From: a virus
Taxonomy: Duplodnaviria > Caudoviricetes
IMG/VR virus record: IMGVR_UViG_3300020042_004628
Location: 1 to 24,482 of that record
Length of the DNA stretch: 24,482 bases
Direction: 5' to 3' (one strand)
Below the pieces are notes generated by a model that did no database searches, was not told the DNA's origin, and was given only the letters and a program-made list of their open reading frames with translations. Each line of letters starts with the position of its first letter. Position 1 is the stretch's first letter. Positions 213 through 20,963 of the stretch are shown in pieces. A program made the position numbers and the translations under genes.

Positions 213-222
213 AATTTACTCC

Positions 223-2195: not shown

Positions 2196-2235
2196 CTAAG
2201 ACCCCAAGGTCGCTCTTTCATTAACTAGGATAGGT

Positions 2236-2562: not shown

Positions 2563-2573
2563 ACAATATTATA

Positions 2574-3442: not shown

Positions 3443-4076
3443 TATCCCTCCTAAAAAATCTATAAGTGTGAAAATTGCTTTTATCTAAATTCCATTTAGC
3501 AGGTACTACTTCTATATTATTATATGCGTTTGTGCCACCTTTAGATATAGGAATTGTATGATCTATATGCCACTCTGCTCTTAGTAATTCTCTTCGCATT
3601 TGTTTTAGTAGGTATGCTTCTTTATATACAAACTTATCAAAATCCGTCATAGTTTTATCAAGGACGCGTTTCTTAGCTTTTCTAGCAGCGATCATAGCTT
3701 TTTGACTAGAGGACTGATTTTTTCGTCGTTGTGCCTCTCTGCCTTTTTCAGTCTTCATCCATTTTTTCCTCCACTCTCGCTTAGCTTCTCGAGCATGGGG
3801 ATTATTTTTTAAGTACCTTTTCTTTATAACATTTCGAATAGCCCTACCTTTTTCAGTTTTGAGATACGCTTTCTTACGCATCTTACGTCTGAACCACGCC
3901 ATTTCTTTTTTAAGGCATCGTCGTTTTAATCTACATTCTTTAACTGCTTGTGCATATAACTTGCGATCAGCAATATTTTGCTTGCGGTCTTCCCTAATCT
4001 TTTCTCGTTCTTCACGAGATAGGGACATAAAGTATCTATGTCTTTCCCGTCTTCGTTCTAGGTTTTTATACGGCAT
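3420..4076 (-). CDS. HNH endonuclease (putative homing endonuclease) with long basic N-terminus
   Basis: WHIDHTIPISKGGTNAYNNIEVVPAKWN HNH motif; Arg/Lys-rich N-terminal region; TAATG-coupled to polA. Confidence 0.85.
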   Translation of the reverse strand: MPYKNLERRRERHRYFMSLSREEREKIREDRKQNIADRKLYAQAVKECRLKRRCLKKEMAWFRRKMRKKAYLKTEKGRAIRNVIKKRYLKNNPHAREAKREWRKKWMKTEKGREAQRRKNQSSSQKAMIAARKAKKRVLDKTMTDFDKFVYKEAYLLKQMRRELLRAEWHIDHTIPISKGGTNAYNNIEVVPAKWNLDKSNFHTYRFFRRDNEKNSAE

Positions 4077-5941
4077 TAGCAGTCCCCGTAACTATCTCCG
4101 AAGTGCGCCTCACAAGCTACAGGTAATCCCGTTGCCCAATCAGGCGGGGTTGACATTGTACCAATAATATACTCCATCGCGCTATCTATCTCTGCCTCAG
4201 GTATGACATTCACTACCGCATCATGCACCGTTAAGACAGGTCGATACTTCTCATTAATCTTTAACATCTGCTCGCCAATAATAATCCGAGCCAATGCTTG
4301 CACCACGTTCTCTACCACAGATCCGCCCCAAATGGATATAAATCCACGTCTTGACTTATAAACAAATTTAGATTTGGCTTCTGATGTATCCCAAGTAAGA
4401 CCAGGATATTTAATATATAAACCATTAGGTAACTTGATGCCTTGAGGTGTAGCGTATAACGCATTATGCTGACCGATAGGATAAGGTTGTTTACCTTCAG
4501 GCCATGAGGCTATATCTCGTAGGGCTTCTTCACATTCACGCCAGAGATCAATCACCTTACTATTAATATTACGATAGACACTTACTAATCTTTTACATTC
4601 ACGTTCATCTAACTCAACACCCGCCGCCAATTTTAAAGTCTGTTGTAGTTTAGCCCACCCTGTGCCATAACCTAATCCTAAAATACAAGTCTTACCCACC
4701 GCACGTTCAGTCTTATTAGCTTTAGTAATAGGGCGTTCATATACAGTTGAAGCAAACTCACAATATACATCTCGTTCTTCTTTGTACCATTGAACGACAT
4801 CGTTCTGTCCCGCTAACCATACTAATACTCGAGCCTCAATCTGTGATGAGTCAGCGTTAATAACTTTGTATCCTTCAGGCGGAATGATTGCGTTCTTTAA
4901 TGCTTTCTTTTTCTTATCTCGTGCGGGTAAGTTTTGAAAGTTAACCTTATCTGAGCCTGCCCATCGCCCTGTATGCGCCCCGTAATATTTAAGAGGAATA
5001 GGTAGCTTACCTTTATTGCGTCCACCAATACCAATGAACCTTTCAATTCTACTCTCCTCAATAGTTGACTTCGTACCTAACCTAACAGTGCAAAGTTGTT
5101 GAATGAACGGGTCTTCATGTTCACATAAATCTATGAAGCCTTGATCGCCTTTAGCTAGTGCATACGTTTCTTTACCTGTTGCTGGACTGATCTTTGTAGG
5201 GACTATAACACCTAACTCTTGTAGTATCTCAGCAAATTGTTTATTAGATGCGAGTTTAGCTCTTACACATTCTTCTGTCTCGCATTCTAACTTAACCATG
5301 AGGCCTTGTAATAACTCTGACTTCTCAAGTTGGACTTCGATGAGTCGGTCTTGTAATAGGGCATCATCGACCTCGAGTAGAGGCTCAGTATACATACGAA
5401 GTGTTAAGTCGATGAGATCAATCTCTGACTGAGGGAACTTAGGTGCTAACACGCCGAATAGTTTATAAGTAAGTTCAACGTCATTTATACAGTAGCCAGC
5501 GTATGCTGACAATTCAGTCTCACTAAAGTCTTCTAACCTTTTACCTTTAGCGTTGACTACTTCTGTACCCTTGACACCTAGATCATAATACTCAACCAAG
5601 AATGCAAGGCTTCCTCCTACTTCAACACCGTTAGTAGCCCGTGCCATAGACAGAGTATCCAAGTAGAGACCAGGAATGATACTAAAGCGGAATGCAAGAA
5701 TAGCCCCGTCGAACTGCGTGTTGTGGCAAAGAAGGGCAGAGTTTTTCCAATCAATTTTGTTAAGAGAATCTTGTATGACTTCGTGAGACCCCGTAACCCA
5801 ATACGTTTCGCCTTCATCAACCTTGATACCCACGCCGATGACTTGAAATCTCGCATCTCTTATATACTCCTCTGTAGTTATACCTGAAAGAGAAAAACCT
5901 ACATCGTAGTAGGTCTCAAAATCTAGTGTGACTAGTTGCAT
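4076..5941 (-). CDS. polA: Family A DNA polymerase with 3'-5' exonuclease
   Basis: Exo I DFETYY, Exo II HNTQFD, motif A DSSQIEAR, motif B RAVGKTCILGLGYG, motif C TVHD. Confidence 0.95.
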   Translation of the reverse strand: MQLVTLDFETYYDVGFSLSGITTEEYIRDARFQVIGVGIKVDEGETYWVTGSHEVIQDSLNKIDWKNSALLCHNTQFDGAILAFRFSIIPGLYLDTLSMARATNGVEVGGSLAFLVEYYDLGVKGTEVVNAKGKRLEDFSETELSAYAGYCINDVELTYKLFGVLAPKFPQSEIDLIDLTLRMYTEPLLEVDDALLQDRLIEVQLEKSELLQGLMVKLECETEECVRAKLASNKQFAEILQELGVIVPTKISPATGKETYALAKGDQGFIDLCEHEDPFIQQLCTVRLGTKSTIEESRIERFIGIGGRNKGKLPIPLKYYGAHTGRWAGSDKVNFQNLPARDKKKKALKNAIIPPEGYKVINADSSQIEARVLVWLAGQNDVVQWYKEERDVYCEFASTVYERPITKANKTERAVGKTCILGLGYGTGWAKLQQTLKLAAGVELDERECKRLVSVYRNINSKVIDLWRECEEALRDIASWPEGKQPYPIGQHNALYATPQGIKLPNGLYIKYPGLTWDTSEAKSKFVYKSRRGFISIWGGSVVENVVQALARIIIGEQMLKINEKYRPVLTVHDAVVNVIPEAEIDSAMEYIIGTMSTPPDWATGLPVACEAHFGDSYGDC

Positions 5942-5953
5942 GTATACCCTCTT

Positions 5954-6229
5954 TTATATGATCGACAATACTACCACGAACACAAAGAATAATCCAAGCA
6001 TAATTCTATTGGTTAGCTTCTCATCTTTTTCTATTCTGTCTTTACTTTCATATGGTGCGCCCCATGCTTCTCTTGCTGAACGAGGTGTAGGTTTATCAAA
6101 TTGATCGGGATTAAAAAATCGCCACCCTTTCTTTGCATTTTTTTTAAATATTTTCATTTGCCAATCTTCAAATACTCGTATTGCTACTCTTGCATGAGGA
6201 TCAAAGTTATTTAATTTTGCGTTTGCCAC
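5954..6229 (-). CDS. Hypothetical protein with C-terminal transmembrane segment
   Basis: Likely GTG start at 6229 after AAGGAG (the longer 6367 start overlaps the TraR-like gene); ends IMLGLFFVFVVVLSII. Confidence 0.65.
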   Translation of the reverse strand: MANAKLNNFDPHARVAIRVFEDWQMKIFKKNAKKGWRFFNPDQFDKPTPRSAREAWGAPYESKDRIEKDEKLTNRIMLGLFFVFVVVLSII

Positions 6230-6242
6230 AATTTTTCTCCTT

Positions 6243-6437
6243 TTATTTTGCGTATTTTTCAAATTCATTCCGGCACTCAATTGAACACCAGCGACGATCG
6301 TCTTTGACAAGTGTTTCACACCATATGCACTTCCCTGTTTGGTTAGAAGGTTTTTTGATTTTATCATGCGCGTTCCTTATACCGACATCAATAGCGTGTT
6401 GCACCAAATCATTAGCCATATCGATGTCATCACTCAT
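6243..6437 (-). CDS. TraR/DksA-like C4 zinc-finger protein
   Basis: N-terminal DxxDxA (MSDDIDMA) as in TraR, plus CxxC...CxxxC. Confidence 0.75.
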   Translation of the reverse strand: MSDDIDMANDLVQHAIDVGIRNAHDKIKKPSNQTGKCIWCETLVKDDRRWCSIECRNEFEKYAK

Positions 6438-6673
6438 CTTATAAATTCTTTATCTTTTGATTGAATATAAAAATACTTACGCCACACCCCGCCTCTAGGT
6501 TGTGCTTTCGGTAAACTAATTAAACCCTTCTTATCGAGATCTCTAATTCTTTGGTGATTACCATGAGAGTGCAGTATGATATGGTTTCTACTTGAGTTTG
6601 GGTGGTCTTGCATATATTTGTTTACTATTGCAATCAGTTCTTCATCAGTTTTCTTTTTATAATCCGCTATCAT
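6434..6673 (-). CDS. Hypothetical protein
   Basis: 79-aa ORF tightly packed with neighbours, GGAG upstream. Confidence 0.6.
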   Translation of the reverse strand: MIADYKKKTDEELIAIVNKYMQDHPNSSRNHIILHSHGNHQRIRDLDKKGLISLPKAQPRGGVWRKYFYIQSKDKEFIR

Positions 6674-6871
6674 TTAATACGTTGCCTCTCCTACTAAATT
6701 AAAAAGTTCTTGTTGAATTTGTGGTTGTGTTTGTTTAGGTTCTTTATCTAGTTTAATTACCTTAACATGAGGATTCTTTTCTGTAAACCATTTCGCTTCC
6801 TTGACAGACCATCGATGTTTACGTATGACTTCGCCCTCATCATCTATAACTGCATAACTAAATGGAATCAC
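6674..6871 (-). CDS. Hypothetical protein
   Basis: 65-aa ORF with GTGA overlap, in gene train. Confidence 0.6.
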   Translation of the reverse strand: MIPFSYAVIDDEGEVIRKHRWSVKEAKWFTEKNPHVKVIKLDKEPKQTQPQIQQELFNLVGEATY

Positions 6872-7050
6872 TTTACTTCTCGTCTCGCAATTTCTTTAGC
6901 AATCTTGGCACGCTTCTTGCCCGGCTCTTGAACCTTGTCGAGCATTTCATATAATACTTTTAATGCTAGTGCTTTTAATCTATCTTTGCCCGTCTTTGTT
7001 TTAAAAGGGTCAGCTTTGCGTTTACTCTTGTGTATCTGTTGTGTTGCCAT
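6868..7050 (-). CDS. Small basic hypothetical protein
   Basis: 60 aa, AGGAG RBS, abuts neighbours. Confidence 0.65.
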   Translation of the reverse strand: MATQQIHKSKRKADPFKTKTGKDRLKALALKVLYEMLDKVQEPGKKRAKIAKEIARREVK

Positions 7051-7257
7051 TTAAAAACTCCTTTGTTCAAAACATTCTAAGTGTGACTTAATAAACATGT
7101 TAGGTTTGATCTCTTCATAGAGTTCGCCTTGTATACATTTAAGACCCGTCTTATGTTTAGTCTGTGTATTATTATACTTCATAATTCCCCAAGTAATGCA
7201 ACACCCTACAATTAATCCCACTAGCACAAACCCCGTGCCTTTATAGTCTTCACCCAT
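7051..7257 (-). CDS. Hypothetical membrane protein
   Basis: N-terminal hydrophobic helix FVLVGLIVGCCITWGI; GAGGAG RBS; TAATG coupling. Confidence 0.65.
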   Translation of the reverse strand: MGEDYKGTGFVLVGLIVGCCITWGIMKYNNTQTKHKTGLKCIQGELYEEIKPNMFIKSHLECFEQRSF

Positions 7258-7517
7258 TACACTCTCCTCATAAGATATGTTCTACTTACTCTACACATTT
7301 TATTACCTTTAATTACATTTATTACATTACACTTGATCATCGGTTTCTTTTGTGATATTAAATACTGCTCTCCTGTATATTGCACCCCTGCTTGAGTAGC
7401 AACACTTGTGGCAACAGTCATACACCCTAAATTAAAGACCACTATAAGCATCAGTAAGACGTTGCGTAGACTCACGATAACTTTTAACTCCTGTAATTTT
7501 TTCAGCTTTTTCTTCAC
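7257..7517 (-). CDS. Hypothetical secreted/lipoprotein-like protein (true start probably downstream, ~7451-7475)
   Basis: Hydrophobic stretch ending FNLG-C (lipobox-like); annotated 5' part overlaps upstream ORF. Confidence 0.5.
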   Translation of the reverse strand: MKKKLKKLQELKVIVSLRNVLLMLIVVFNLGCMTVATSVATQAGVQYTGEQYLISQKKPMIKCNVINVIKGNKMCRVSRTYLMRRV

Positions 7518-7698
7518 ACTTATATAATGGTGTGATCGTTACATAATGTTTCTTATTAGGTAAGTCTCTTATCCACGATAATTCTTTAGGCCTAAATTGT
7601 GTAATCGATGACCACACTAATTCACCATTGATATTAAATTCTTCTGTCGACCATGCGTATGGTTGTTTGGGTAATCCGCTTTTAAGGGTTTCTTGCAT
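7432..7698 (-). CDS. Hypothetical protein
   Basis: ORF 7432..7710; ATG at 7698 after GGAAG is the likelier start. Confidence 0.6.
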   Translation of the reverse strand: MQETLKSGLPKQPYAWSTEEFNINGELVWSSITQFRPKELSWIRDLPNKKHYVTITPLYKCEEKAEKITGVKSYRESTQRLTDAYSGL

Positions 7699-8068
7699 AT
7701 TTACTTCCACCTTGTTTATAAAATATTAGGTTTGACCATTTAACTACGGGTTGCAATCCTATCCATGATCTTGGTTTCTTTATTGTGGTGTCATGGAAGT
7801 GGGTCGCCCCATAACTATAATCTACTTCTAATCTATGTAATACTCTGTAGGCTATGTTCTTATATTCTTGTCGAATCACCGACGGAGGTTTAACTATACC
7901 ATACCAACTAAATTGTGCGGGTCTTTTCATTTGATAGCATATGTTCTTATGTTCAAACTCGGCTCTGCGCAATAAGACATACCCTACTGCAATTTGTGCT
8001 TCTTTTGGTTCATGCGCCGACTCCATGTAAATGGTTGTGGCTAGGCATAACAATGCTTGATCTAGCAT
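7682..8068 (-). CDS. SleB/Hydrolase_2-family cell wall hydrolase
   Basis: CLATTIYMES (catalytic Glu), QIAVGYV, QFSW, GATHFH, LIFYK; AAGGAGG RBS. Confidence 0.88.
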   Translation of the reverse strand: MLDQALLCLATTIYMESAHEPKEAQIAVGYVLLRRAEFEHKNICYQMKRPAQFSWYGIVKPPSVIRQEYKNIAYRVLHRLEVDYSYGATHFHDTTIKKPRSWIGLQPVVKWSNLIFYKQGGSKYARNP

Positions 8069-8094
8069 ATGACCTCCTTGTTTAAGGGACTAAA

Positions 8095-8385
8095 TTATTT
8101 TTTGTTTGAAGTAGCTTCTTTGATGAGGCGTTGTAGATACCAATCTGCTTTACGCAAATCTTCTACGCCGTTTTTAAATTTCCAACGCCAAACATATTTA
8201 ATAATGTTGCCTGTGCATACGGCTTCAATACCAAACAGTCCTTTGGTGGCTTCCTTGATAGCGTCGATACATTCAATCGCGCCTTGTGTATAGTGTGATG
8301 GGTGATTCACATTATCTTTTACTGCTTTTACAATCTTTACTGCTTTACTTTTATAACTATTAAGAATTTTTCTTAGTCGTGTCAT
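8095..8385 (-). CDS. DUF3310 / T7 gp1.7-like (SaV-like) protein, putative nucleotide kinase
   Basis: DNVNHPSHY..IECIDAI..GNIIKYVWR..KNGVEDLRKA.WYL signature. Confidence 0.88.
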   Translation of the reverse strand: MTRLRKILNSYKSKAVKIVKAVKDNVNHPSHYTQGAIECIDAIKEATKGLFGIEAVCTGNIIKYVWRWKFKNGVEDLRKADWYLQRLIKEATSNKK

Positions 8386-8672
8386 TGTATCTCCTTTACT
8401 AGAGCCAATAGTGACTCTATATTATCTTCATTTATCACGATTGCCAAGCCCTGATTGCGTTTTATGTCATCAATGTTGCGTAATTGCAACAAAGTAGGCT
8501 TGTTATCACCTGATTTACACTCAATACCAATGAATTTACCCTTATAACACGCGATAATATCAGGCACGCCACTCCTACCATATCCTGTTGCCATTGGTGA
8601 GAAATGGTATGCGCCTAGATCATCTAATATCTTCTTGACTTTCTTTTTTACTTTACTCTCGGGTGTTGCCAT
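8382..8672 (-). CDS. VRR-NUC domain nuclease (putative Holliday junction resolvase)
   Basis: TPESKVK...GVPDIIAC...IECK...PTLLQ signature. Confidence 0.88.
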   Translation of the reverse strand: MATPESKVKKKVKKILDDLGAYHFSPMATGYGRSGVPDIIACYKGKFIGIECKSGDNKPTLLQLRNIDDIKRNQGLAIVINEDNIESLLALVKEIQ

Positions 8673-8673
8673 A

Positions 8674-8940
8674 TTAAATTACAGGAATGACATTTAATTC
8701 TGATTGGCTTGATGTCCATATAGCACCCGCATCATTACCCTCATCATCACGCATCGCAATAATCCAATGGCCGTCTTCAAACTCAATCACTAAACCTGAT
8801 GAGTCCCATGCAATATCTTCGCGTTCACGATCGTCCAAATATCTTACACGTCGTATTGTTTTACCTACTAAAAAATTACTAGCTAGATTACCCCAATATT
8901 CTCGGAGTTCTGCCTTACCCGCTACTTTAATGTCCGTCAT
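8674..8940 (-). CDS. Conserved phage hypothetical protein
   Basis: LVGKTIRRVRY...DDEGNDAG motif; AGAAACGGGG leader. Confidence 0.7.
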   Translation of the reverse strand: MTDIKVAGKAELREYWGNLASNFLVGKTIRRVRYLDDREREDIAWDSSGLVIEFEDGHWIIAMRDDEGNDAGAIWTSSQSELNVIPVI

Positions 8941-9079
8941 TTTCTGTCCCCGTTTCTTTTAGTTTATGTTGTTCAACACTGCATTTCATACCAAACATAA
9001 TCGCGTCAAAAATATTAAACTTCTCGACCTTATCATGTTCTTCTACTTGTTGCTTTATAGCTTCATCATTAGTCTTCAC
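8927..9079 (-). CDS. Small hypothetical protein (50 aa, not in ORF track)
   Basis: AGGAGG then GTG at 9079; MKTNDEAIKQQVEEHDKVEKFNIFDAIMFG...; fills gap. Confidence 0.55.
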   Translation of the reverse strand: MKTNDEAIKQQVEEHDKVEKFNIFDAIMFGMKCSVEQHKLKETGTENDGH

Positions 9080-9350
9080 ATCGTCCTCCTACACAAGCAC
9101 GTCCGATGATCTCGTTTTCTAAATCGTTATATGCGTCAGCTTGAATTAAATGATCTTGATACTTCTTTAATCGGTCATACAATCTATGCTCGGTCTCAAC
9201 GCTATAAGCATTTACAACAAAGCCTTTCTCTCTTAATGGTTCAGCTAATACTGTATTGACGTGGTCACTAGGTTCAACACCCCATTTAACTACCTCGTCA
9301 TACTTCGCGTCTTCCATTGATACTTCTAACACTAAACTAAACTTTTTCAT
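9069..9350 (-). CDS. Hypothetical protein with C-terminal CVGGRCED
   Basis: AAGGAG RBS, 93 aa. Confidence 0.7.
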   Translation of the reverse strand: MKKFSLVLEVSMEDAKYDEVVKWGVEPSDHVNTVLAEPLREKGFVVNAYSVETEHRLYDRLKKYQDHLIQADAYNDLENEIIGRACVGGRCED

Positions 9351-9359
9351 ATGTTCTCC

Positions 9360-9605
9360 TTATAGAAACCAACTGCCAAGTAATACACCCACTAATAACC
9401 ATGCACCATAACGCACCCAACTCTTTTCTATTTCGACCCATGACTCTGCGCCTAACTTATTTTGTATTTCTTTTTCAATTTTAGCTTGTTCTTTGTTAAA
9501 CTTTGTTAGGTTTTTATCAATCCGTTTTTTACCTAACTTTCTCATGCGTTGATAGTCATGGGTTAAGTCGTTTAACTTGTCTTCAATATTAACTTGTTGT
9601 CTCAT
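9360..9605 (-). CDS. Hypothetical coiled-coil protein with C-terminal TM anchor
   Basis: GAGGAG RBS; ends WLLVGVLLGSWFL. Confidence 0.65.
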   Translation of the reverse strand: MRQQVNIEDKLNDLTHDYQRMRKLGKKRIDKNLTKFNKEQAKIEKEIQNKLGAESWVEIEKSWVRYGAWLLVGVLLGSWFL

Positions 9606-9819
9606 CTTTTTTCTCCTCGAAGTTTTTTAATGATTGCATATACTGATTTGTTGCATAATTAATACCTCGTATTACACCAAGTCGCATCGCATCATAAAAC
9701 ATCTTTGCATGTTTCTCTGACCTTACATCTTCATGCGCCTCGACCCAATGGTAATACTCGGCTACCGCTACTTCTATAATGTCTTGCTCAAACTTGCGTT
9801 TCTTTTCTTCGGGCGTCAT
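9589..9819 (-). CDS. Hypothetical protein
   Basis: GGAGG RBS, 76 aa. Confidence 0.65.
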   Translation of the reverse strand: MTPEEKKRKFEQDIIEVAVAEYYHWVEAHEDVRSEKHAKMFYDAMRLGVIRGINYATNQYMQSLKNFEEKKDETTS

Positions 9820-9983
9820 TGATATATCCTCCCTACTCCGTTTAAAATACTCTGTAAATCTTTTGCATCGAAATCAGTCTTGTTAAATGCAAACGGCGAT
9901 TTTCTACCATTGGCGTGTTTAACGTAGCCTGTCACTACTACTTGCTCGACTATAATTTGTTTCTCTTTTTTCTTGTCTGTCAT
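9816..9983 (-). CDS. Small hypothetical protein (55 aa, not in ORF track)
   Basis: MTDKKKEKQIIVEQVVVTGYVKHANGRKSPFAF...; ATGA overlap with next gene. Confidence 0.6.
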   Translation of the reverse strand: MTDKKKEKQIIVEQVVVTGYVKHANGRKSPFAFNKTDFDAKDLQSILNGVGRIYQ

Positions 9984-9986
9984 TTT

Positions 9987-10187
9987 TTATTCCCTATCGT
10001 ATTTATAGTATTTTAAATCGGCCATGTAATCGTCTATTAATTTGTAATACTTTAATGTTGCTGGATTTACACCCGCTTTTATTAATGTTTCATGCAAGAG
10101 CAAAGCCAATGTAGTCTTTTTTTGATGTTTACCAAACCACTTATTTTTTTTATGCCATGCTAATGCTTTCTTACTAGTAGTCACCAT
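9987..10187 (-). CDS. Small protein resembling a phage head-scaffold C-terminal domain
   Basis: Start probably ATG 10187 (GGAG 6 nt upstream); motif KALAW..KNKWFG....T.LAL.LHETLIKAGVNP....YY..ID..M. Confidence 0.6.
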   Translation of the reverse strand: MVTTSKKALAWHKKNKWFGKHQKKTTLALLLHETLIKAGVNPATLKYYKLIDDYMADLKYYKYDRE

Positions 10188-10422
10188 CGGGGTCTCCATA
10201 TTTTTGTGCTTGGTTTTCTAGTATATCACGATTGACTTCGTATTCAACCTCATCTAACACGCCCTCGATGTCACTTCTTGCTTGTCTAAAATGATCTTCT
10301 AGGTTAAGCGTATCTTCTGTGCCGTCTTCCCAACGGAAGCCTATCCACCATGATTTAATTCTCAACGGCTCTTGCGGTGAGGGCGGGTCTAAGTCGCGTT
10401 CTAATCTATCTATATCGCTCAT
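10174..10422 (-). CDS. Acidic hypothetical protein
   Basis: GAGGAG RBS, 82 aa. Confidence 0.65.
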   Translation of the reverse strand: MSDIDRLERDLDPPSPQEPLRIKSWWIGFRWEDGTEDTLNLEDHFRQARSDIEGVLDEVEYEVNRDILENQAQKYGDPDGDY

Positions 10423-10528
10423 TTATTTTCTCCTCTAATTGTTTTAATAATGCCTTGTTCTCGTCTTTTAATGTAGCAACCTCGTTTGTTGCCGTCACAT
10501 ATAACTCATACAATTCATCAAAGGTCAT
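10406..10528 (-). CDS. Small coiled-coil hypothetical protein (40 aa, not in ORF track)
   Basis: GAGGAGG RBS, ATGA overlap; MTFDELYELYVTATNEVATLKDENKALLKQLEEKINERYR. Confidence 0.55.
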   Translation of the reverse strand: MTFDELYELYVTATNEVATLKDENKALLKQLEEKINERYR

Positions 10529-10707
10529 CTTACTTCCTCCTCGATGTGATCTTTATAAAATTGTTCTACCACTTCATTAGGCATATTATTCCAACCTTTC
10601 CAACCATCTCTTATAATATACTCCATGTCTTGACGACCCGCGCCGTCTTGCAACCAATCGGTTTCATACTTAATACACGCTTCACGTTTTTCTTCGATCG
10701 TAATCAT
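10525..10707 (-). CDS. Hypothetical protein
   Basis: AGGAGG RBS, ATGA coupling. Confidence 0.65.
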   Translation of the reverse strand: MITIEEKREACIKYETDWLQDGAGRQDMEYIIRDGWKGWNNMPNEVVEQFYKDHIEEEVR

Positions 10708-10889
10708 TTGCTTGCCTCCTGTTCGTTTATATAACTTTCCATGTTAACGATTGTGACTTGTTCTTTACCCTCATCAAACAATTCACTTGCCATTCTGAAT
10801 GCCCCCTTGCGTGTTAAGTAGTAAGCATTAACTTCCATGTCTGCCATTTCTTCTTCGCAATACACGCTATATATTTTTTTATTACTCAT
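10704..10889 (-). CDS. Hypothetical protein
   Basis: GAGGAGG RBS, ATGA coupling. Confidence 0.65.
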   Translation of the reverse strand: MSNKKIYSVYCEEEMADMEVNAYYLTRKGAFRMASELFDEGKEQVTIVNMESYINEQEASK

Positions 10890-11164
10890 CGTCTTGCCTC
10901 CTCGTGCATAAACTTCATTTGTTTATCAATCTCGTCTAGTTCTTTTTCTTCTTCCTTACTTCTCATGCGTCTTTGCATTCGTGCGTTCCACTCATCATTA
11001 TCTTTTTTCCATTCGTCGTAATGATATTCTTTAAACCATTCATCAAAATAAGTCCCGTCCTCTAAGTAATACAATAATGAATCCCCGTTGTTAATGTGAA
11101 AGTCACTATTGGAATACATATACTCTATAAACTCTTTTTCATACTTTTCTTGTGGGTCAATCAT
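10886..11164 (-). CDS. Acidic hypothetical protein
   Basis: ORF 10886..11176; ATG at 11164 after GAGGA is the likelier start. Confidence 0.65.
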   Translation of the reverse strand: MIDPQEKYEKEFIEYMYSNSDFHINNGDSLLYYLEDGTYFDEWFKEYHYDEWKKDNDEWNARMQRRMRSKEEEKELDEIDKQMKFMHEEARR

Positions 11165-11348
11165 CGTATTCCTCATTATTTAAAGTTTTTAAAATAAACT
11201 CTGCCCATGACTTTGCTCGTTTCTCGTCAATCAATGAAACTATATCTATCCCCATATCATCGGCGACCTCGTTAGCTTCTTTTAAGTCTTTACATTTACC
11301 CAAAGAATACATATCGCCCTCATCACTTATGCCATACCATTTACTCAT
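11157..11348 (-). CDS. Acidic hypothetical protein
   Basis: GGAGG RBS, 63 aa. Confidence 0.65.
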   Translation of the reverse strand: MSKWYGISDEGDMYSLGKCKDLKEANEVADDMGIDIVSLIDEKRAKSWAEFILKTLNNEEYDD

Positions 11349-11349
11349 C

Positions 11350-11601
11350 TTAAACCCTCCAAGTATTCTTAATAAATTTTAAACATCTATTTAAGTTTCC
11401 CTTTTCAAAATAGTGTTCAGCTATTGTGTATGATCTCTCTCTGTATCCTAATACCTCATAGCTAACCCCTTCATTACTTTCATCGGCGCGAATAGCATCA
11501 TAAGTTTTATCTAAAGCCCACGATAAGTTTTTTGTGCTAACTTCGCTTGATAATAGGATATTTCTTAACCGCTTACTTATAACCCACTCAAACGTTATCA
11601 T
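11350..11601 (-). CDS. Hypothetical protein
   Basis: AAGGAG RBS, 83 aa. Confidence 0.65.
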   Translation of the reverse strand: MITFEWVISKRLRNILLSSEVSTKNLSWALDKTYDAIRADESNEGVSYEVLGYRERSYTIAEHYFEKGNLNRCLKFIKNTWRV

Positions 11602-11758
11602 TCTTGGTCTCCTTAAAGAATGCCTCTTTTAATCCTTTGCCATATGGGTCTGTCTTTGCTTTGTTTGTTATCCTTACCCATATCTCATGCCTAGCAAATA
11701 GTTCTAGCGCGTCTTCTAAATTATCTATTGACGCCGTATCGTCTTTATACTTAATCAT
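11588..11758 (-). CDS. Small hypothetical protein (56 aa, not in ORF track)
   Basis: AAGGAGG RBS; MIKYKDDTASIDNLEDALELFARHEIWVRI...; fills gap. Confidence 0.6.
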   Translation of the reverse strand: MIKYKDDTASIDNLEDALELFARHEIWVRITNKAKTDPYGKGLKEAFFKETKNDNV

Positions 11759-11966
11759 CTTTGTCCTCCTTATGTTCTGTAATCTCTGCCTCGTCCCAAA
11801 AAGTTTCGTAATTGTCTGAGTCTACTGCTTGATAATCACTTGATACATAACTTCCGTCCATAGCTTTTCTAACTGCTTCATCTTCGTTATCAGCTTCAAC
11901 TATGTAAGTGTGTTTTTCAAATACTCTTGCTACGTTATCCACTAAAACTTTAAACTTCTTCATCAT
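11751..11966 (-). CDS. Acidic phage protein with VEAxxExEA motif
   Basis: IVEADNEDEAVRKA; 20 of 71 residues are D/E; GGAGG RBS. Confidence 0.7.
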   Translation of the reverse strand: MMKKFKVLVDNVARVFEKHTYIVEADNEDEAVRKAMDGSYVSSDYQAVDSDNYETFWDEAEITEHKEDKDD

Positions 11967-12156
11967 TTGCCTCCATTTGTAATAAAGTATCCATAACGTC
12001 CCAACCCAACTCTATAAGTCTGTCGGCTATATGCCTTTCATTGCCTTGTAGCCATTCCTCACACTTTTCTAATGACCATGCACCATTGATAGATTTCACA
12101 TCTTCTGCTCGCCATACTACCTTTGCATACTCATCACCATATAAATTACTCATCAT
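11950..12156 (-). CDS. Conserved phage hypothetical protein
   Basis: GAGGAGG RBS; W.AEDV...GWDV motif. Confidence 0.7.
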   Translation of the reverse strand: MMSNLYGDEYAKVVWRAEDVKSINGAWSLEKCEEWLQGNERHIADRLIELGWDVMDTLLQMEANDEEV

Positions 12157-12347
12157 ACTTCCTCCTCTGCGGGTTCAAATTTTTCTGCCGTCCACATATT
12201 ACTTATGCAATTATTCATGCGTTTAGTGGCTTCTATAGCTATGCTAGACATAAGAAAAACATAGTGGTCATCATCAACGCCCTCTATTTCTTCTGCGTCT
12301 TGCATCGCGTTTAAGACGTTGTTATATATTTCGTTGGCTCTGTCCAT
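12153..12347 (-). CDS. Hypothetical protein, first gene of second early operon
   Basis: AMQDAEEIEG motif; TAGAAACGGGG leader; directly downstream of promoter at 12380-12424. Confidence 0.7.
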   Translation of the reverse strand: MDRANEIYNNVLNAMQDAEEIEGVDDDHYVFLMSSIAIEATKRMNNCISNMWTAEKFEPAEEEV

Positions 12348-12379
12348 ATCAATCCCCGTTTCTATTATTGAGGTCTACG

Positions 12380-12424
12380 ATTATCTCAAACTTGTTTTTA
12401 CGTTGTCAAGTATTATTTTACAAT
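12380..12424 (-). promoter_or_regulatory. Strong sigma70-type early promoter (copy 2)
   Basis: TTGACA (12409-12404), 18 nt, TGa-GATAAT (12385-12380); 22 bp at 12403-12424 identical to 17259-17280. Confidence 0.75.
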
Positions 12425-12434
12425 TATTTTGTAG

Positions 12435-12542
12435 CCCCCGTTTCTAAGCCGACCTGGTTGGTGTCCCCGTTTCTAGTCCCCTTTTCTTAATCGTTCCCGT
12501 TTCTAGCCCCCGTTTCTTTTTCGTAATTTGCCCCCGTTTCTA
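12435..12542. repeat. Array of five CCCGTTTCT(A) direct repeats plus one degenerate copy
   Basis: Cores at 12437, 12466, 12496, 12509, 12533; degenerate CCCCTTTTCT at 12478; no consistent ORF. Confidence 0.85.
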
Positions 12543-12568
12543 ATGAAGCCAGTTCTTTAGATTTTGCA

Positions 12569-12584
12569 CATTAAATATTTAATG
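12569..12584. repeat. Perfect 16-bp palindrome CATTAAATATTTAATG
   Basis: Self reverse-complementary; intergenic. Confidence 0.85.
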
Positions 12585-12618
12585 CGTGGACGAAGTGAGA
12601 GTTTTAGGGTAAAGAGAT

Positions 12619-12643
12619 ATAACCCTATTGTGAGTAGGGTTAT
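12619..12643. repeat. Inverted repeat ATAACCCTA-N7-TAGGGTTAT
   Basis: 9-bp perfect stem. Confidence 0.75.
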
Positions 12644-12649
12644 TCAGTA

Positions 12650-12677
12650 GAAAAGGGACGGGCATGGGTAGCCCGTC
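12650..12677 (-). terminator. Probable intrinsic terminator of the first operon
   Basis: GACGGGC-N7-GCCCGTC stem followed by CCTTTTCT on minus strand, about 35 nt after the peptidase stop; short U tract. Confidence 0.6.
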
Positions 12678-12710
12678 GAGGTTGGAGTCGGTCATTATTT
12701 TGTGGCGGGT

Positions 12711-13742
12711 TTAATAGTGATAAGGTGTGCGGTCGAGTGGTGCGTCGAGGTCGTCGTTCATGGCGTCCATTGGGTAGTATTGCGCCTCCTCCATGTATTG
12801 AATTTGATCGACTAGGTCATAGATCACCCCCGCTATATCGTCGGGCTTGGCACTCTTAACCCATTTTAATAATGACTTAAAATCGGTATATAGTAGATCA
12901 TCATAGGTTGGGAGATCGTGCGACATGGTGCGATTGTGTGCGCCATAAAATGAATATAGTGGACGCGGTTCGGGTTTTCTGACAACGGGGAGGGCTTGGC
13001 GTTTCCAATCATAAGCGAGGATTGTGTCCCTCATTCTTAACACGTGCGCCGTGTCTAAAGTTTCCGCGCTTGTGTGTTCTGACTGATAGCCTATCGAGAT
13101 ATTAAGACACTCGGGGACGAGGTGCGCATATTCGGCGGTGTCTGTATATATGCCCGTCGTGTCGAGTTGAAAGTCTTTTCCGAATAGCTTAATAAGTGCG
13201 TGACCTAGTTCATCAGAGGCGCAACGTCCGCCCCGTTGGTGTGTGATGATCGAGGTTGTCCCGCGTCTATCAAACGCGACCGCGTGTGTAAATTGTTTTA
13301 TATAGTCGGCATGTAGTTCTGCGATCTGTGATGAACCCCACCCCCCGCGTTCCTCTCCTCTGTGAAATATATATGTTCCCTCGACGTTGGCGTCGATCAT
13401 TTCAAGCATTAAGAAAACCCCCGCGCCGTCATCTGCGCCCAAACAATCGGAGGCTTGATCTACGAACGCCGTGCCGAAAGTATCTAGGAAAACTTCTTGC
13501 GTGATAAGTTCGGGCGTTGAGTTGTGCATGGTGTCAATGTGCGCACTCCATAAAATATTCGTCTTTGCTTTTTTATTGTGGTTGTCGTAAATATACGCGA
13601 GTGTTTCGCCGTCCTCGTTGGTTAGCGTTTTGAAGTCTTTAAAATAAGCGTTTATAAAATCTCTCTCGCCCTCGCTTTCATGTTGGCGTCGATAAGTAAG
13701 AATGTTTAAAAGTCTGTCGATTGGTTTGTTAATTGTTTTCAT
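12711..13742 (-). CDS. M28/M20-clan zinc-dependent peptidase/amidohydrolase
   Basis: SAHIDT, LGADDGAG, GEERG, AFDRRG and EH metal-ligand/catalytic motifs; GAGGA RBS. Confidence 0.88.
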   Translation of the reverse strand: MKTINKPIDRLLNILTYRRQHESEGERDFINAYFKDFKTLTNEDGETLAYIYDNHNKKAKTNILWSAHIDTMHNSTPELITQEVFLDTFGTAFVDQASDCLGADDGAGVFLMLEMIDANVEGTYIFHRGEERGGWGSSQIAELHADYIKQFTHAVAFDRRGTTSIITHQRGGRCASDELGHALIKLFGKDFQLDTTGIYTDTAEYAHLVPECLNISIGYQSEHTSAETLDTAHVLRMRDTILAYDWKRQALPVVRKPEPRPLYSFYGAHNRTMSHDLPTYDDLLYTDFKSLLKWVKSAKPDDIAGVIYDLVDQIQYMEEAQYYPMDAMNDDLDAPLDRTPYHY

Positions 13743-15555
13743 TTTGTTTAATGTCCTCTGTTGATGTTGTTGTATTTAGGGCGGTGTCGGAGTTGTCCTC
13801 GTCGTCCTCTGCCTCTGCGTCAATCTCTGCTTGTATTCTTTCCGCGTCGTCGGTGTGACATTTTGTCCCGTCGCTTAATTCGTGGACGTCGTCCGTGTGT
13901 GCTGATTCGTTGCCGTCGGCGTCCGCGTGGTCAATGCTTGTCGTATAGTCACAATAGATAAAACCGCGCAACGTCATAACGAGATCGTCTATGTGGTAAT
14001 AGTCGCCCGACTCCTCACAAGCATAAATATCATGCGCGGATAAATCGCAGTCCTCATGGAAAGCGTCATCATTAGCCCATATAACGTGGTCGTTGTGGAC
14101 GTAGTCTTGATTATTGTTATCGATCCAAGCATAAGAATAATTATTATCACAACAATGTCGGCATATATAGTCGCCGTGTGAAGTGCTTACCATGTCGTCG
14201 TTGTGTTCTATGTCCCCACAGGCGTCGCACTCGCTCATGTCCTCGTCCTCCACGTCGTCCGTCCAGCCGTTCGTCATGGTTAAACTTAAATCGCCGTGCG
14301 TGTTGATCTCGATATAAGTTCTGTTGTCAATGTCCACAAGTTCGCCCGATTGTGCCGAACCCTCCGAGCCGTTGCCGTCCACTCCCGCGTCGATATATGG
14401 TGCGACAAAAATGTCGTCCTCGTCCTCATGCTCGATCATCTGCAACAAACACCCGTCGAGGTTGCCGTGAGTGTATCCGTTTGCTTTTAAATATTGTTGG
14501 AGGTATTTCCCCTCCGTTGAGCCGTTGGCGTCGGGGTAGATTCTAACGTATTGTTTGAAGTCCTCCCGCACTATGCAACGCGCTAAAATTTCACCCGCTA
14601 GGCTTTGAATATATGCCAAGCGTATTACCGATTTGTCATGCGCATAAACTCGAACGGCGTCTGTGCCTTTCATACACGAACCCGCTAAACAATCGCGGTA
14701 TATGCGGACGAACCCCTCGGCGTCGGTGCTTTCAATGTATTTAACTTCCCACCCTGTGCGACTTGCGACTATCGCGTTGTATTTCTCGACGGCGTCCTTG
14801 ATCTCTGTTTCTGTTATGCCGATAAAATCCTTGAACGAGGTTAAATATTTACCCAATTTTGTCACGACCTCGCGCCCGTCCCTCAAGTGTTTTAATGTTG
14901 GATAGTGCGCTATCTGTAGAGGGTTCATTAAACTAACGTGGACGCGGTGCAACCAAAAAAGATAGCTTATGTTTTGGCTTTGCTCGTTGTTTATGCCGAT
15001 CGAGTTCCAAGGCATAAAAACCCACTCACCCGTGTTAAATTCTTGGTCGATCTGTTTAATGCGCGGTTCGAGTTTGTCCCGCACCTTGTCGAGTTGTTCA
15101 ATCCTCTTTATGTATTCACAAGCGCGGAGGGTGTAGTCGAGGTTTTTCCGTTCTTGTTCTACGTCGGGCGGGTTGCGCACGTCGCTGATAGTTTTCGCGA
15201 GTATTGTCCCGTTGATTTTATAATAGGCGTCCGTCCCGCCTAGTCGGTAATAATCCGAGCGCGAGTATTTAGTTTTGCGTAGTTGTTCGCGTTTCGCTCT
15301 TTCGTCTTTCTCGAGTTGATCGTTTAAGAATAGGCGGACGTTGTTTTGTCGGTGTTCGCTTTGTTGTTGGTGCATAAGGGCGTAGTCGTTGGCGTTCGCA
15401 TAGAATAAAGGCACTCGCGCCCAAAATGTATCGCCGTTTTGAAACCCTTTTGTTATGCCGTGATATTTTAAAAGGCTAGGGGTGCGAGGCGTGTTTATGT
15501 TTAAGTTAGTTTCTATTATGCGTTTGAAGTCCGTTTTAGTTTGTTCCAAGTTCAT
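13729..15555 (-). CDS. Large phage protein with central 'SCM...ARCIV...RIY...PYID' domain and acidic Cys/His zinc-ribbon C-terminus
   Basis: ORF 13729..15573; ATG at 15555 after GCGAGG is likelier; CDAC..ICRHCC..CEES motifs; function unknown. Confidence 0.75.
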   Translation of the reverse strand: MNLEQTKTDFKRIIETNLNINTPRTPSLLKYHGITKGFQNGDTFWARVPLFYANANDYALMHQQQSEHRQNNVRLFLNDQLEKDERAKREQLRKTKYSRSDYYRLGGTDAYYKINGTILAKTISDVRNPPDVEQERKNLDYTLRACEYIKRIEQLDKVRDKLEPRIKQIDQEFNTGEWVFMPWNSIGINNEQSQNISYLFWLHRVHVSLMNPLQIAHYPTLKHLRDGREVVTKLGKYLTSFKDFIGITETEIKDAVEKYNAIVASRTGWEVKYIESTDAEGFVRIYRDCLAGSCMKGTDAVRVYAHDKSVIRLAYIQSLAGEILARCIVREDFKQYVRIYPDANGSTEGKYLQQYLKANGYTHGNLDGCLLQMIEHEDEDDIFVAPYIDAGVDGNGSEGSAQSGELVDIDNRTYIEINTHGDLSLTMTNGWTDDVEDEDMSECDACGDIEHNDDMVSTSHGDYICRHCCDNNYSYAWIDNNNQDYVHNDHVIWANDDAFHEDCDLSAHDIYACEESGDYYHIDDLVMTLRGFIYCDYTTSIDHADADGNESAHTDDVHELSDGTKCHTDDAERIQAEIDAEAEDDEDNSDTALNTTTSTEDIKQNENN

Positions 15556-15925
15556 GTTGAACCTCGCTTTCATGTTTAAGTTGTTCTAGGTTTTTAGAAT
15601 TAACTGCGGGTTCTTGGTCGATCATGTTTTGATCGGTGTGACTAGGTTCTATTAAACTAAATAAATGTGCTTTTTTATGTTTCACGCCGTCGCGCAAGTT
15701 AGTTTCTAGGTTCTTTGTTGCGTGGTGCGCGTTTGCCATGTCCGCCTTTGTGGGTTGGTAGTAAAAAATAAATTTTACTTCGTGGCCGTTCATTGTGCCG
15801 TCGATAATGTTCACACTAGGCGCGGTTGGTTTCGTGACCTCGTAGGCTTTTTGTGGGCGGAGTTGGTTTCGTAAAATTTCTATTGCGTCGTGTCTTTGTT
15901 GCGCTTGGGTTGGTGCGGTTTTCAT
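15536..15925 (-). CDS. Hypothetical early protein
   Basis: 129 aa, ACGAAAGGCACAAAATG leader. Confidence 0.7.
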   Translation of the reverse strand: MKTAPTQAQQRHDAIEILRNQLRPQKAYEVTKPTAPSVNIIDGTMNGHEVKFIFYYQPTKADMANAHHATKNLETNLRDGVKHKKAHLFSLIEPSHTDQNMIDQEPAVNSKNLEQLKHESEVQHELGTN

Positions 15926-15987
15926 TTTGTGCCTTTCGTTTTAGTGTTTTTAAGGTTTTGAGGCTTTCACAATCGCTCTATGAACGA

Positions 15988-16149
15988 TTATTTTTTGGGG
16001 GTTGATGTCTTACTATGTCCCTTTTCGATCGTTTTGTTTGCTTGTTCGAGGTATCGAACGGCGTCTTGGTATGCCCTCGAGGTGTCGGGCGTTAAGTGTT
16101 TTGTAAGTAGTGCGTCGAGGTATCGAGGGTGCGCGTTTTGTTTTTTCAT
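15988..16149 (-). CDS. Small hypothetical early protein (53 aa, not in ORF track)
   Basis: ACGGAAGGCACAAAATG leader; MKKQNAHPRYLDALLTKHLTPDTSRAYQDAVRYLEQANK... Confidence 0.6.
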   Translation of the reverse strand: MKKQNAHPRYLDALLTKHLTPDTSRAYQDAVRYLEQANKTIEKGHSKTSTPKK

Positions 16150-16274
16150 TTTGTGCCTTCCGTGAGTTCGTTTAATTTGTCTTGGAATTCTTCAAGCATA
16201 AGTTCGGTGTCGTAAATTTTCTTGCCTGTGTCCTCGTCAATGTAAAAATAAATTTCTTGCTTGATCGTTTTCAT
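16146..16274 (-). CDS. Small acidic early protein (42 aa, not in ORF track)
   Basis: ACGAAAGGCACAACATG leader, ATGA overlaps on both ends; MKTIKQEIYFYIDEDTGKKIYDTELMLEEFQDKLNELTEGTK. Confidence 0.65.
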   Translation of the reverse strand: MKTIKQEIYFYIDEDTGKKIYDTELMLEEFQDKLNELTEGTK

Positions 16275-16471
16275 GTTGTGCCTTTCGTGAGTTTAGTTTT
16301 AAAGTCGTTGAGTGCGGTTTCGATCTGTCGAATTGATAGACGAAGTTTAAACGCGGTTTCGTAGGTGTTATTAAAAAGCAGAGTTGAGAGAATGACGCGC
16401 TCGGAAGTTGAAAGCGCGTCGGGGTTATTTAATGCCCTCTTTATTTGAGGGCGTAGGTGTTCGAGTGTCAT
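16271..16471 (-). CDS. Hypothetical early protein
   Basis: GAGG RBS, ATGA coupling. Confidence 0.65.
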   Translation of the reverse strand: MTLEHLRPQIKRALNNPDALSTSERVILSTLLFNNTYETAFKLRLSIRQIETALNDFKTKLTKGTT

Positions 16472-16749
16472 AGTGTGACCTCGTATTTTTTAATGAATGC
16501 TTTTAAGGCTCTTACTTCCTGTTGTGCGTTTTTTCTATCCTCTTTTATGTCCGAGTTGAGCCATTCATTGTTCAAGTGTCCGCCCTCATAAAAACACGAT
16601 AAGACATACCGAGCCTCTGCAATTATTTCTTGAGGGGTGTAGTCCTTGATTTCTTTGCCGTCGTCCGTCGATATGTTCTGCATTGAAAACCAAAGTTCGT
16701 ATGACTTGAATGCGTCCCTGTCAAACTCTTTTGAAAAATTGGGTTTCAT
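16468..16749 (-). CDS. Hypothetical early protein
   Basis: TAGAAACGGGGG leader, ATGA coupling. Confidence 0.7.
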   Translation of the reverse strand: MKPNFSKEFDRDAFKSYELWFSMQNISTDDGKEIKDYTPQEIIAEARYVLSCFYEGGHLNNEWLNSDIKEDRKNAQQEVRALKAFIKKYEVTL

Positions 16750-17189
16750 AAAACCCCCGTTTCTATTCTGTGCGCTTGGTTCTTCTCAAATTCTTCAAAG
16801 TCAATTAATGCTATGTAGTCGAGTTGCGCGAGGTCGTTTATATTTTCGTCTTTCCATGCCTCGAGTATCAATTTTCCGTAGTTATTGACAAGTGCCTGCG
16901 CTTTGATTGCGCTTTCTCTGATGTGTAAAATGTCTTGTATTTTGTATAAATCGGGGTTCTTTATTGCCTGTGCTATGTGTTGAACGACAAAAAGTCGGGC
17001 GCAGTCTGCCATAGGTGTTTCATATTTTCTATGTTCCCCGCCGAATGATTGTCTATGCTTTTTCTCGTCTTTGAGGTTCATTCCAAATAAATCCTCGCGG
17101 TATGCCGTCCATGTGATGTTGTTTAAAACTCTTAATTTTGAATATGCTTGGTTGATTGCGTTTATGATTTGTTTTTGTTTCATGTTCAT
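16746..17189 (-). CDS. Hypothetical protein, first gene of first operon
   Basis: ACGAAAGGCTACAAAATG leader, immediately downstream of promoter at 17236-17280. Confidence 0.7.
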   Translation of the reverse strand: MNMKQKQIINAINQAYSKLRVLNNITWTAYREDLFGMNLKDEKKHRQSFGGEHRKYETPMADCARLFVVQHIAQAIKNPDLYKIQDILHIRESAIKAQALVNNYGKLILEAWKDENINDLAQLDYIALIDFEEFEKNQAHRIETGVL

Positions 17190-17235
17190 TTTGTAGCCTT
17201 TCGTTTGTGGTTGATGTTTTGTATTGCTGTCTGTG

Positions 17236-17280
17236 ATTAGATCACGCGGTATTATTGATTGTCAAGTATTATTTTACAAT
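17236..17280 (-). promoter_or_regulatory. Strong sigma70-type early promoter (copy 1)
   Basis: TTGACA (17265-17260), 18 nt, TGa-TCTAAT (17241-17236); shares 22 bp with 12403-12424. Confidence 0.75.
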
Positions 17281-17294
17281 GTATCGTATTTTGT

Positions 17295-17800
17295 TTGAAC
17301 GAGGTTAAAACTAGGTAAAAAAGCCTTTATAATCAATAGGTTCATGCGGTTCATGTTTTGAAACTTTACCTTAAACAAGTGAACGAGGTTTTTATGAACG
17401 CGTGGGAGTTTGTAAGTGCTTGTTATATATATATATTTTATAGTTTATTATTAATATTAATAGATTGGTTCATGGGTTCATGCTCTGCCATAAGAGTGAG
17501 CGGGGTAGAAACTCCACCGCATTAACGAAGTGAACGATCTCTAAACTTCGTCAAACTCCTTTCCCTTTGTCCTATTATTTGGCATGAACTTCGTGAACTT
17601 CGTGAACTTCCGTTTAAAATCAAGGACTTACAACGTGAACGCCGTAAAATAAAACGTGAACTTCATGAACTTCTCAATATAATCAAGGACTTACGCGCGA
17701 ACCGCGCCTTTATGAACCAAGTGAACGAGGTGGACGAAGTTTAACGGGGTTATAACCAAGTGAACGAGGCGGACGCGGTGAACTTCGTGGACGCGGTAGG
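17295..17800. repeat. Non-coding array of ~9-bp (A/G)TGAAC repeats with AT-rich tract; candidate genome terminus/packaging region or origin
   Basis: 14 TGAAC on + and 4 on - by eye, many in 9-bp tandem (catgaactt-cgtgaactt-cgtgaactt); AT tract ~17423-17462. Confidence 0.85.
17618..17693 (+). promoter_or_regulatory. Two IHF consensus sites
   Basis: AATCAAGGACTTA at 17618-17630 and 17681-17693 matches WATCAANNNNTTR; 63 bp apart. Confidence 0.65.
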
Positions 17801-18017
17801 AACTAGGCGCGACGCGGTCGCATACTACGAACCCCACGCACCCCGTATGACCCCGTTTTACAAAGTAGGAGTCCCGTCTCGCCCTACATTGAGCCCAATA
17901 TGAACGATCAGAAAAAAAGTCAAATATAGAAACCCGCCCCCTATCAAATAAAAAGGGTCATCAAAAAATATATTTTGCAAAAATTCTGAAAAGTAAGGGT
18001 AAAGTATTATTTTACAG

Positions 18018-18347
18018 CTAGGCAGCGAAGGAAGAACCACAACCGCAAGTACTAGTTGCAGCGGGGTTTTTTATTTCAAAACCTGAAGTCATTAAAGAAG
18101 TGTTATAGCTTATAACAGACCCAGTTAAGTATTGCATGCTATGAGCATCTACAAGTAAAGACACTTCATCTTGGTCTACTACAAAGTCATCTTCGTTTTG
18201 AGTGTCATCAAAAGTAAAACCGTATTGAAATCCAGAACAACCACCACCGGATACATAGATGCGTAGTTTAAGTCCTATGACATTTTCTATGGCTAACAAA
18301 TCTTTTATTTTTACTATAGCAGAGCTTTCTAGGGTTATCGGATTCAA
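18018..18347 (-). CDS. erpA: A-type Fe-S cluster carrier (ErpA/IscA/HesB family)
   Basis: LRIYVSGGGCSGFQYGFTFD and TCGCGSSF with all three Cys; TTG start coupled to upstream stop. Confidence 0.9.
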   Translation of the reverse strand: MNPITLESSAIVKIKDLLAIENVIGLKLRIYVSGGGCSGFQYGFTFDDTQNEDDFVVDQDEVSLLVDAHSMQYLTGSVISYNTSLMTSGFEIKNPAATSTCGCGSSFAA

Positions 18348-20954: not shown

Positions 20955-20963
20955 GGATAACAT

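Follow-up and report, generated by a model that had tools for sequence, protein, structure and literature searches.

The principle of a site-poor early arm has been published for the first-step-transfer (FST) DNA of phages T5 and BF23 (Tequintavirus), where sites for restriction enzymes appear to be costly over about 10 kb of early DNA but are tolerated in the rest of the genome (PMC10644984; bioRxiv 10.1101/866236). In Murciavirus (Autographiviridae), only motifs in the leading region of the genome matter, and this region is the most variable (PMC12455610). The leading regions of plasmids are likewise first-entering DNA with anti-defence genes (PMC13478746, PMC11541004), and palindromic Type II-type words are avoided genome-wide by phages (PMC6286503). 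Here we describe a comparable arrangement in IMG/VR record IMGVR_UViG_3300020042_004628 (Duplodnaviria; Caudoviricetes). The entire record of 24,482 nt, hereafter the window, represents part of a phage genome, with one arm read leftward and a late arm read rightward; a block of the leftward arm (5700..18010, not assigned to a strand) is purged of restriction-type words. The block is real, clade-wide and well delimited; its principle is that already known from T5/BF23 and Murciavirus.

An initial sequence-only reading had reported that GTAC is absent from 5569-18048, with 20 sites to the left and about 16 to the right. Exact counting confirmed the void: 20 sites occur in 1-5568 (the last at 5565), none in 5569-18048 and 17 thereafter (the first at 18049). 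Several dozen sites had been expected in the interval; the models gave 25.0 (maximal-order Markov) or 44.7 (dinucleotide product). The gap of 12,484 nt has a probability of ~1e-10 and is the most extreme among all 4-mers, the runner-up standing at 2e-4. Two further claims of that reading were borne out: CCGG, reported missing from ~6925 to ~18246, occurs at 6270 and 6921 and next only at 18247, and CCAG plus CTGG are scarce in the zone (11, 6 and 35 copies in the left flank, zone and right flank, respectively).

The sequence-only reading had itself named lower-order codon bias as a possible explanation. Indeed, codon use in the zone differs from that in the flanks, with fewer GCT and CCT codons, and CAG/CTG is low. 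However, when synonymous codons were shuffled 500 times in 36 zone open reading frames (ORFs) picked by hand, GTAC was expected 26.8 ± 4.4 times, with a minimum of 15, against a real count of 0. In the flanks, the observed numbers agreed with the same expectation (19 versus 20.2 and 17 versus 18.0). An artefact of composition or codon usage is thus refuted, as the depletion outlasts shuffling of the zone's own codons, is specific to palindromes and leaves CATG, CTAG and, in the window, GATC untouched; we allow this explanation virtually no chance.

The initial reading had overlooked that the purge extends to about a dozen words, of which GTAC is one. In the codon-shuffle test of the same zone, the observed and expected counts were 0 and 6.7 for GCNGC, 0 and 9.0 for GGNCC, 0 and 12.0 for GGNNCC, 2 and 18.6 for ACNGT, 5 and 24.3 for CTNAG, 1 and 7.7 for CCNGG, 1 and 8.7 for CCN7GG, 2 and 11.4 for CCNNGG, 5 and 20.7 for GCNNGC, and 4 and 12.8 for GGCC. 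GGATG is also missing from 5.7-18.0 kb. By the same test, GATC, GCGC, CGCG, TCGA, CATG and CTAG were not depleted. Among words consisting of two bases, a gap and two bases, the ratio of observed to expected counts (O/E) was below 0.25 for 11 of 48 palindromes versus 2 of 360 non-palindromes. We take the purged words to be targets of Type II restriction systems.

The shape of the block was evaluated with an 11-pattern panel selected after the zone had been seen. A change-point fit with this panel placed the borders at 5700 and 18000. The panel density was 11.9 sites/kb in 1-5.7 kb, 2.5 in 5.7-9.3 kb, 1.6 in 9.3-12.5 kb, 0.0 in 12.5-18.0 kb and 17.6 beyond 18.0 kb. Thus, the right border is sharp and the left one is graded, the return of sites running through the DNA polymerase A gene, polA (4076..5941, minus strand), whose 5' part holds the far edge of the block. 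The trinucleotides CAG/CTG number 110 in the zone versus 180 expected after codon shuffling, the deficit being strongest in CCAG, CAGC and CAGG contexts. A CAG/CTG deficit was seen in 6/6 zones tested; in the window (5942-17783), O/E was 0.66 versus 1.13 outside. Selection against restriction-type words, in what is probably an early arm starting at a repeat-rich region, is well supported: the edge of the purge goes with the repeats in 31 loci, and complete relatives have one such block (see below).

Relatives were collected by locus searches with the peptidase (10 loci) and with the terminase, Hjc-like and SprT-like proteins (the best 80 of a larger number in each case). Ten long relatives were used for whole-block comparisons: G001-G005, five long records whose large terminase (TerL) is 82-94% identical, and G006-G010, five records rated 94-100% complete. 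A single purged block lies at the same place in 10/10. In G001-G005 it is located between polA and sprT/terS, and GCNGC occurs once in each block versus 97-225 times outside. With G006-G010 rotated to the array start (see below), the one purged block falls at the start, the first 9 kb containing 0, 0, 5, 1 and 3 GCNGC sites versus 29-38 when scaled from the rest. A second set comprised 35 dereplicated junction loci, including the window and overlapping some of the G records. Of these, 34 were long enough for comparison, and in 33 the density in the zone was less than one third of that on the late side; in the pooled loci, the return of sites was graded over 8-16 kb. Loci that are more distant but share the replication module carry a block purged of other words (GTAC in L178, AGCT in L186). 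No purged block was found in HTVC023P or, over the 50 kb examined of each, in DSL-LC04 and MinM2 (TerL identity 43-52% across the three). HTVC023P-type podophages, the closest isolates by terminase (49-51%), share the order terL-portal-GroES-capsid and polA with this clade, but their early-gene layout is unlike. We found no description of a purged block in this phage clade in the literature searched, subscription papers and supplements being outside its scope.

The purged words differ among lineages. At the start of the array-rotated records, GTAC occurs 2, 0 and 0 times in G006-G008 and 22 and 31 times in G009 and G010; it is retained in G005, G009 and G010, and the clade-wide words are GCNGC, CCNGG and GGNCC. 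The sequence-only reading had attributed the gap to a single GTAC-recognising restriction or defence system. One such system is too narrow because the three other words are purged clade-wide and GTAC is kept in three of the records. Purging of GATC is regional in G004, G007 and G008, whereas in G005 it extends to the whole genome. The orthologous zone genes contain no GATC in the first three of these records, but 5-10 copies in the window, G001-G003, G006, G009 and G010. The purge therefore happens in place. This result largely refutes a mosaic origin, in which the early arm would have come from phages whose avoidance of these words covers the whole genome. Hypervariability of the arm and the genome-wide avoidance of single words in distant relatives (GTAC, 0 in 50 kb of MinM2; GATC in G005) would suit such an origin. 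Against it, conserved orthologues are purged of different words by lineage, the edge follows a cis-element, the purge fades within core genes and is lacking from what looks like a new insert; we give it very little credence. Two other patterns of avoidance were noted. The MinM2 genome (L268, 69% GC) lacks GTAC throughout the 50 kb scanned. GGCC is absent genome-wide from G006 and over ~24 kb of late genes in G010, at ~44-68 kb from the array.

At the sharp edge lies a non-coding hexamer-repeat array (17378..17783, no strand) with nine copies of GTGAAC, copies of CATGAAC and an AT-rich tract; two IHF-like sites (17618 and 17681) were recognized within it by consensus. By the same consensus, IHF-like sites occur at 3.2/kb in arrays versus 0.15/kb elsewhere and are present in 28/31 arrays. 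The array is a candidate genome end or terminal repeat, or an origin, and lambda offers a parallel in that cosB joins terminase repeats with an IHF site (PMC4669245). Beyond the array is a conserved motif of two T-tracts and a G-run (17936..17990, minus strand), the window copy of which was found by eye; it is a candidate terminase-loading element, with a single match in each of 123 of ~265 records, not dereplicated. This motif was ruled out as the purge edge, since sites continue 0-3.3 kb past it.

The edge was located using the 31 of 35 dereplicated loci with at least 8 hexamer copies, counting 3 kb from the array start, with arrays picked blind to sites. Core sites numbered 207 in 39.8 kb (5.2/kb) from motif to array versus 40 in 93 kb (0.43/kb) after the array start. 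The edge was assigned to the array rather than the motif because sites persist beyond the motif yet drop at the array. In several loci the stretch from the junction motif to the array contains 20-23 core sites (G009, L139, L151, L205, L227 and L238 were flagged), and the last 4 kb before the array in G009 include one 2-kb bin with 12 CCNGG sites, which may be an enrichment. Of the initial claim that the depleted zone starts at a repeat-rich putative genome end, the edge at the repeats holds across the 31 loci; the end belongs to the interpretation that follows.

We propose, with a probability of about 0.62, that the genome has a fixed linear end at or beside the array, that the arm enters first and faces host Type II enzymes, and that early products blunt restriction. 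Where the genome ends, in which order it enters, that restriction is the agent and that a protective gene exists are what we infer; the purge, its polarity, its edge and the lineage-specific word sets were observed. According to this proposal, the 12-kb arm of a linear genome would be first into the cell and would meet host Type II enzymes while they are active, leading to the purge of sites. Early genes, read from host-type promoters, would blunt restriction broadly, and later-arriving DNA would tolerate sites for that reason. Progressive entry would explain why sites reappear gradually across polA and the helicase gene, and each lineage would lose those words that are recognised by the systems of the host population it encounters. 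Packaging, starting from this same junction, would proceed towards terS/terL, and the arm would therefore be packaged last and ejected first, under the last-in-first-out rule that links packaging order to ejection order. This reading is supported by the codon control, the palindrome specificity, the block in G001-G010, the low density in 33 of 34 junction loci, the array edge and the graded return, and also by the GATC counts in orthologues, an unpurged C5 methyltransferase insert, the ArdC gene that stands first in G002 and the absence of a clade-wide methyltransferase (see below). Precedents exist in Murciavirus and T5-like phages (PMC12455610, PMC10644984). As in leading-region avoidance generally, the depletion is regional and exceeds codon and composition effects, the genes concerned are of early type and variable, and the position is conserved in relatives.

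Several points weigh against this reading. The array also resembles a replication origin. Contigs of 46 loci cross it from side to side and their ends do not accumulate within it, which gives no sign of a terminus. All 23 listed runs consisted of contigs, and no start or end signal was found in the four runs examined, where depth was confounded by relatives. The named palindromes account only partly for the CAG/CTG deficit. No zone gene is universal, the best being present in 25/33 loci, and no known anti-restriction family (Ocr, ArdA/B/C, Dar) was detected among the early ORFs of the window using PHROG, Pfam, PADLOC and NCBIfam. Finally, headful packagers should not show such a pattern (PMC12455610). 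Contig ends lie within 1 kb of sprT in 15/80 loci on the array side versus 0/80 on the opposite side, a difference confounded by variability; the contig-end pattern fits a terminal repeat, concatemers or permutation.

The lack of a physical end in the assemblies would be expected under the main alternative, in which the whole genome enters at once, the array is an origin or control region and the order in which genes are needed sets the pattern. Cuts would then be lethal in the early genes only, those elsewhere being repaired, or prevented once early products exist. Such an explanation is helped by the gradient, which runs along the early operon in the direction of transcription, and by the inverted repeats, IHF-like sites and AT tract, which fit an origin too. 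By contrast, the non-coding array is itself purged, with 6 core sites in 31 arrays, while the interval from the junction motif to the array, which has small same-strand ORFs and TTGAC-type promoters, is unpurged. The unpurged pre-array ORFs and the purged array favour entry order over order of need, not decisively, and we regard the latter as unlikely without dismissing it.

A third way to confine selection to the arm would be modification of the virion DNA everywhere else, whether host methylases or a phage enzyme that escaped recognition were responsible. Some marine relatives by terminase have been proposed to hypermodify thymidine (PMC9599517), and G002 carries a C5 methyltransferase gene. 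This enzyme was found in G002 only, however, and the methyltransferase families PF00145, PF01555 and PF02086 were each found in 0/5 near-complete relatives. Similarly, no base-modification family was detected among 85 non-zone ORFs, a subset of those in G003, G005 and G002, and there is no known way of sparing one arm. We consider this explanation very improbable. The C5 methyltransferase gene in the G002 block has 12 panel sites in 1.2 kb, while the remaining 10.2 kb of the block has 8; a gene inserted recently would be expected to show this. In the locus record of G002 (L095), this gene lies at 10066-11265 and that of ArdC at 14569-15408.

Returning to the proposed first-entering arm, we compared it with the described systems. 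As far as sequence tells, this is not the two-step injection of T5. Both have a repeat-rich non-coding region at one border, but in T5 the repeat-rich stop signal is at the end of the FST DNA (PMC10644984; bioRxiv 10.1101/866236), whereas here the sharp edge and the array would be at the start. The far border is graded, within continuous coding DNA around polA, and no repeat-rich stop region was met there. No homologue of A1 or A2 was found by PHROG or Pfam match in 52 window ORFs, and the phages of this clade differ from T5 in having genomes of 59-78 kb, polA and an SU10-type adaptor. The interpretation in the sequence-only reading, with its T7/T5-like staged entry, is partly supported, entry order being probable; the graded far edge is unlike a T5-type stop. 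Murciavirus differs in that one Type I motif was studied by experiment in a T7-family phage (PMC12455610), whereas the present depletion affects about a dozen Type II-type words over 9-12 kb (single words over more than 20 kb), on evidence from sequence; no RNA polymerase family was matched in the ORFs scanned. The depleted words are of the same palindromic, Type II-type class as in genome-wide avoidance, but here the avoidance is regional: GCNGC, which is often over-abundant in phage genomes (PMC6286503), is plentiful in the rest of the genome but almost missing from the block. In plasmid leading regions, palindromes are not consistently depleted (PMC13478746), while the phage arm is strongly depleted; the likeness extends to ArdC, the first early gene in 5/33 related loci.

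The suggestion that small early ORFs are anti-defence candidates had a mixed outcome. No window ORF belongs to an anti-defence family: PADLOC detected 0/30 in the zone ORFs and NCBIfam returned nothing relevant. ArdC, on the other hand, is encoded in the 5/33 related loci, not including the window, and is the first gene after the array in G002. The most widely shared gene of the block, present in 25/33 loci, is a 93-aa ORF (9069..9350, minus strand) with a C-terminal CxxGxC[ED]D motif. Its 206 homologues have invariant C-terminal cysteines, and its model is helical (predicted local distance difference test score 83.9). No PDB match was found by sequence or fold and nothing significant in PHROGs; its sole match in BFVD is an uncharacterised phage protein. 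The CxGGxCED tail is reminiscent of the C-terminal dithiol in class II ribonucleotide reductases. This ORF is a candidate host-takeover or protection factor. The second most shared ORF, in 22/33 loci, encodes 55 aa without a family (9816..9983, minus strand). A run of small acidic ORFs (10174-12347), most with 20-28% Asp plus Glu, resembles DNA mimics by composition only. A bolder version of the proposal is that the genome enters gradually from an IHF-bound repeat end and that a small conserved early gene, such as that of the 93-aa protein, provides a new, broad shield against many unrelated Type II enzymes; this widespread clade is not related to T5, and no RNA polymerase has been recognised in it. 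We consider it doubtful as a whole.

The leftward arm consists of small ORFs, polA, an exonuclease and an SNF2 helicase, and the rightward late arm encodes TerL, the portal and GroES. About 36 early-type ORFs (5954..17189, minus strand), mostly small and unannotated, are hypervariable near the array and conserved towards polA; their designation as early is based on gene type and predicted promoters. Matches among the zone ORFs were a peptidase, a cell-wall hydrolase, Hjc, DUF3310 and a DksA-like zinc finger. A predicted sigma-70-type early promoter within a repeat (AATAATACTTGACA) is located at 17222..17280 (minus strand), with copies at 12366-12424 and near 2260. The copy at 12409 scores 11/12, but the whole promoter scan is at chance level (50 versus 51.8). 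An M28 peptidase and a 614-aa phrog_6980 protein (12711..15573, minus strand) are present in only 7/33 loci. Weak homologues of the 614-aa protein (24-33%) are encoded by Klebsiella/Escherichia phages of ~43 kb, in many cases at 4-5 kb from where the record starts; in an Atlas search it matched only viral clusters, and the 147-aa first ORF had no match. A trio of genes encoding a DUF2201 VWA protein, an AAA ATPase and a ~309-aa product occurs in G004 (L102:9038-12237), G005 and MinM2, as an alternative early cassette to the peptidase and 614-aa pair.

Outside the block, at the putative trailing end, erpA and a sprT-like gene (18018..18688, minus strand) have normal site density, as do a putative small terminase gene, assigned by position with no family match, and the large terminase and portal genes (18785..23390, plus strand). 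The phage-borne ErpA (18018-18347) scores above the NCBIfam cutoff and has a large phage-like group at ≥89% identity, whereas identity to the cellular ErpA sampled is only 50-59%. A search for a host through ErpA returned only near-identical proteins without a host name, and a first genome scan gave no match. In a second scan, which covered 1/64 parts, the matches were at 50-59%, mostly in Beta- and Gammaproteobacteria, which weakly suggests a beta- or gammaproteobacterial host.

The stretch is partly present in at least 20 listed runs, mostly from freshwater, lake or drinking water. An unrelated and widespread freshwater clade appears to divide its genome as T5-like phages do, and it offers natural variants by the dozen. 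How T5-like phages shield their late DNA from diverse restriction enzymes is an open question (PMC10644984). For uncultured phages, the purge gives a prediction of the genome end and of the direction of entry that needs nothing but sequence, and it lists host restriction specificities lineage by lineage. The search for a broad anti-restriction factor is narrowed to a few small conserved ORFs that could be expressed in laboratory E. coli. If a broad shield does exist, each lineage's purged words would be a readout of the restriction systems of its uncultured host.

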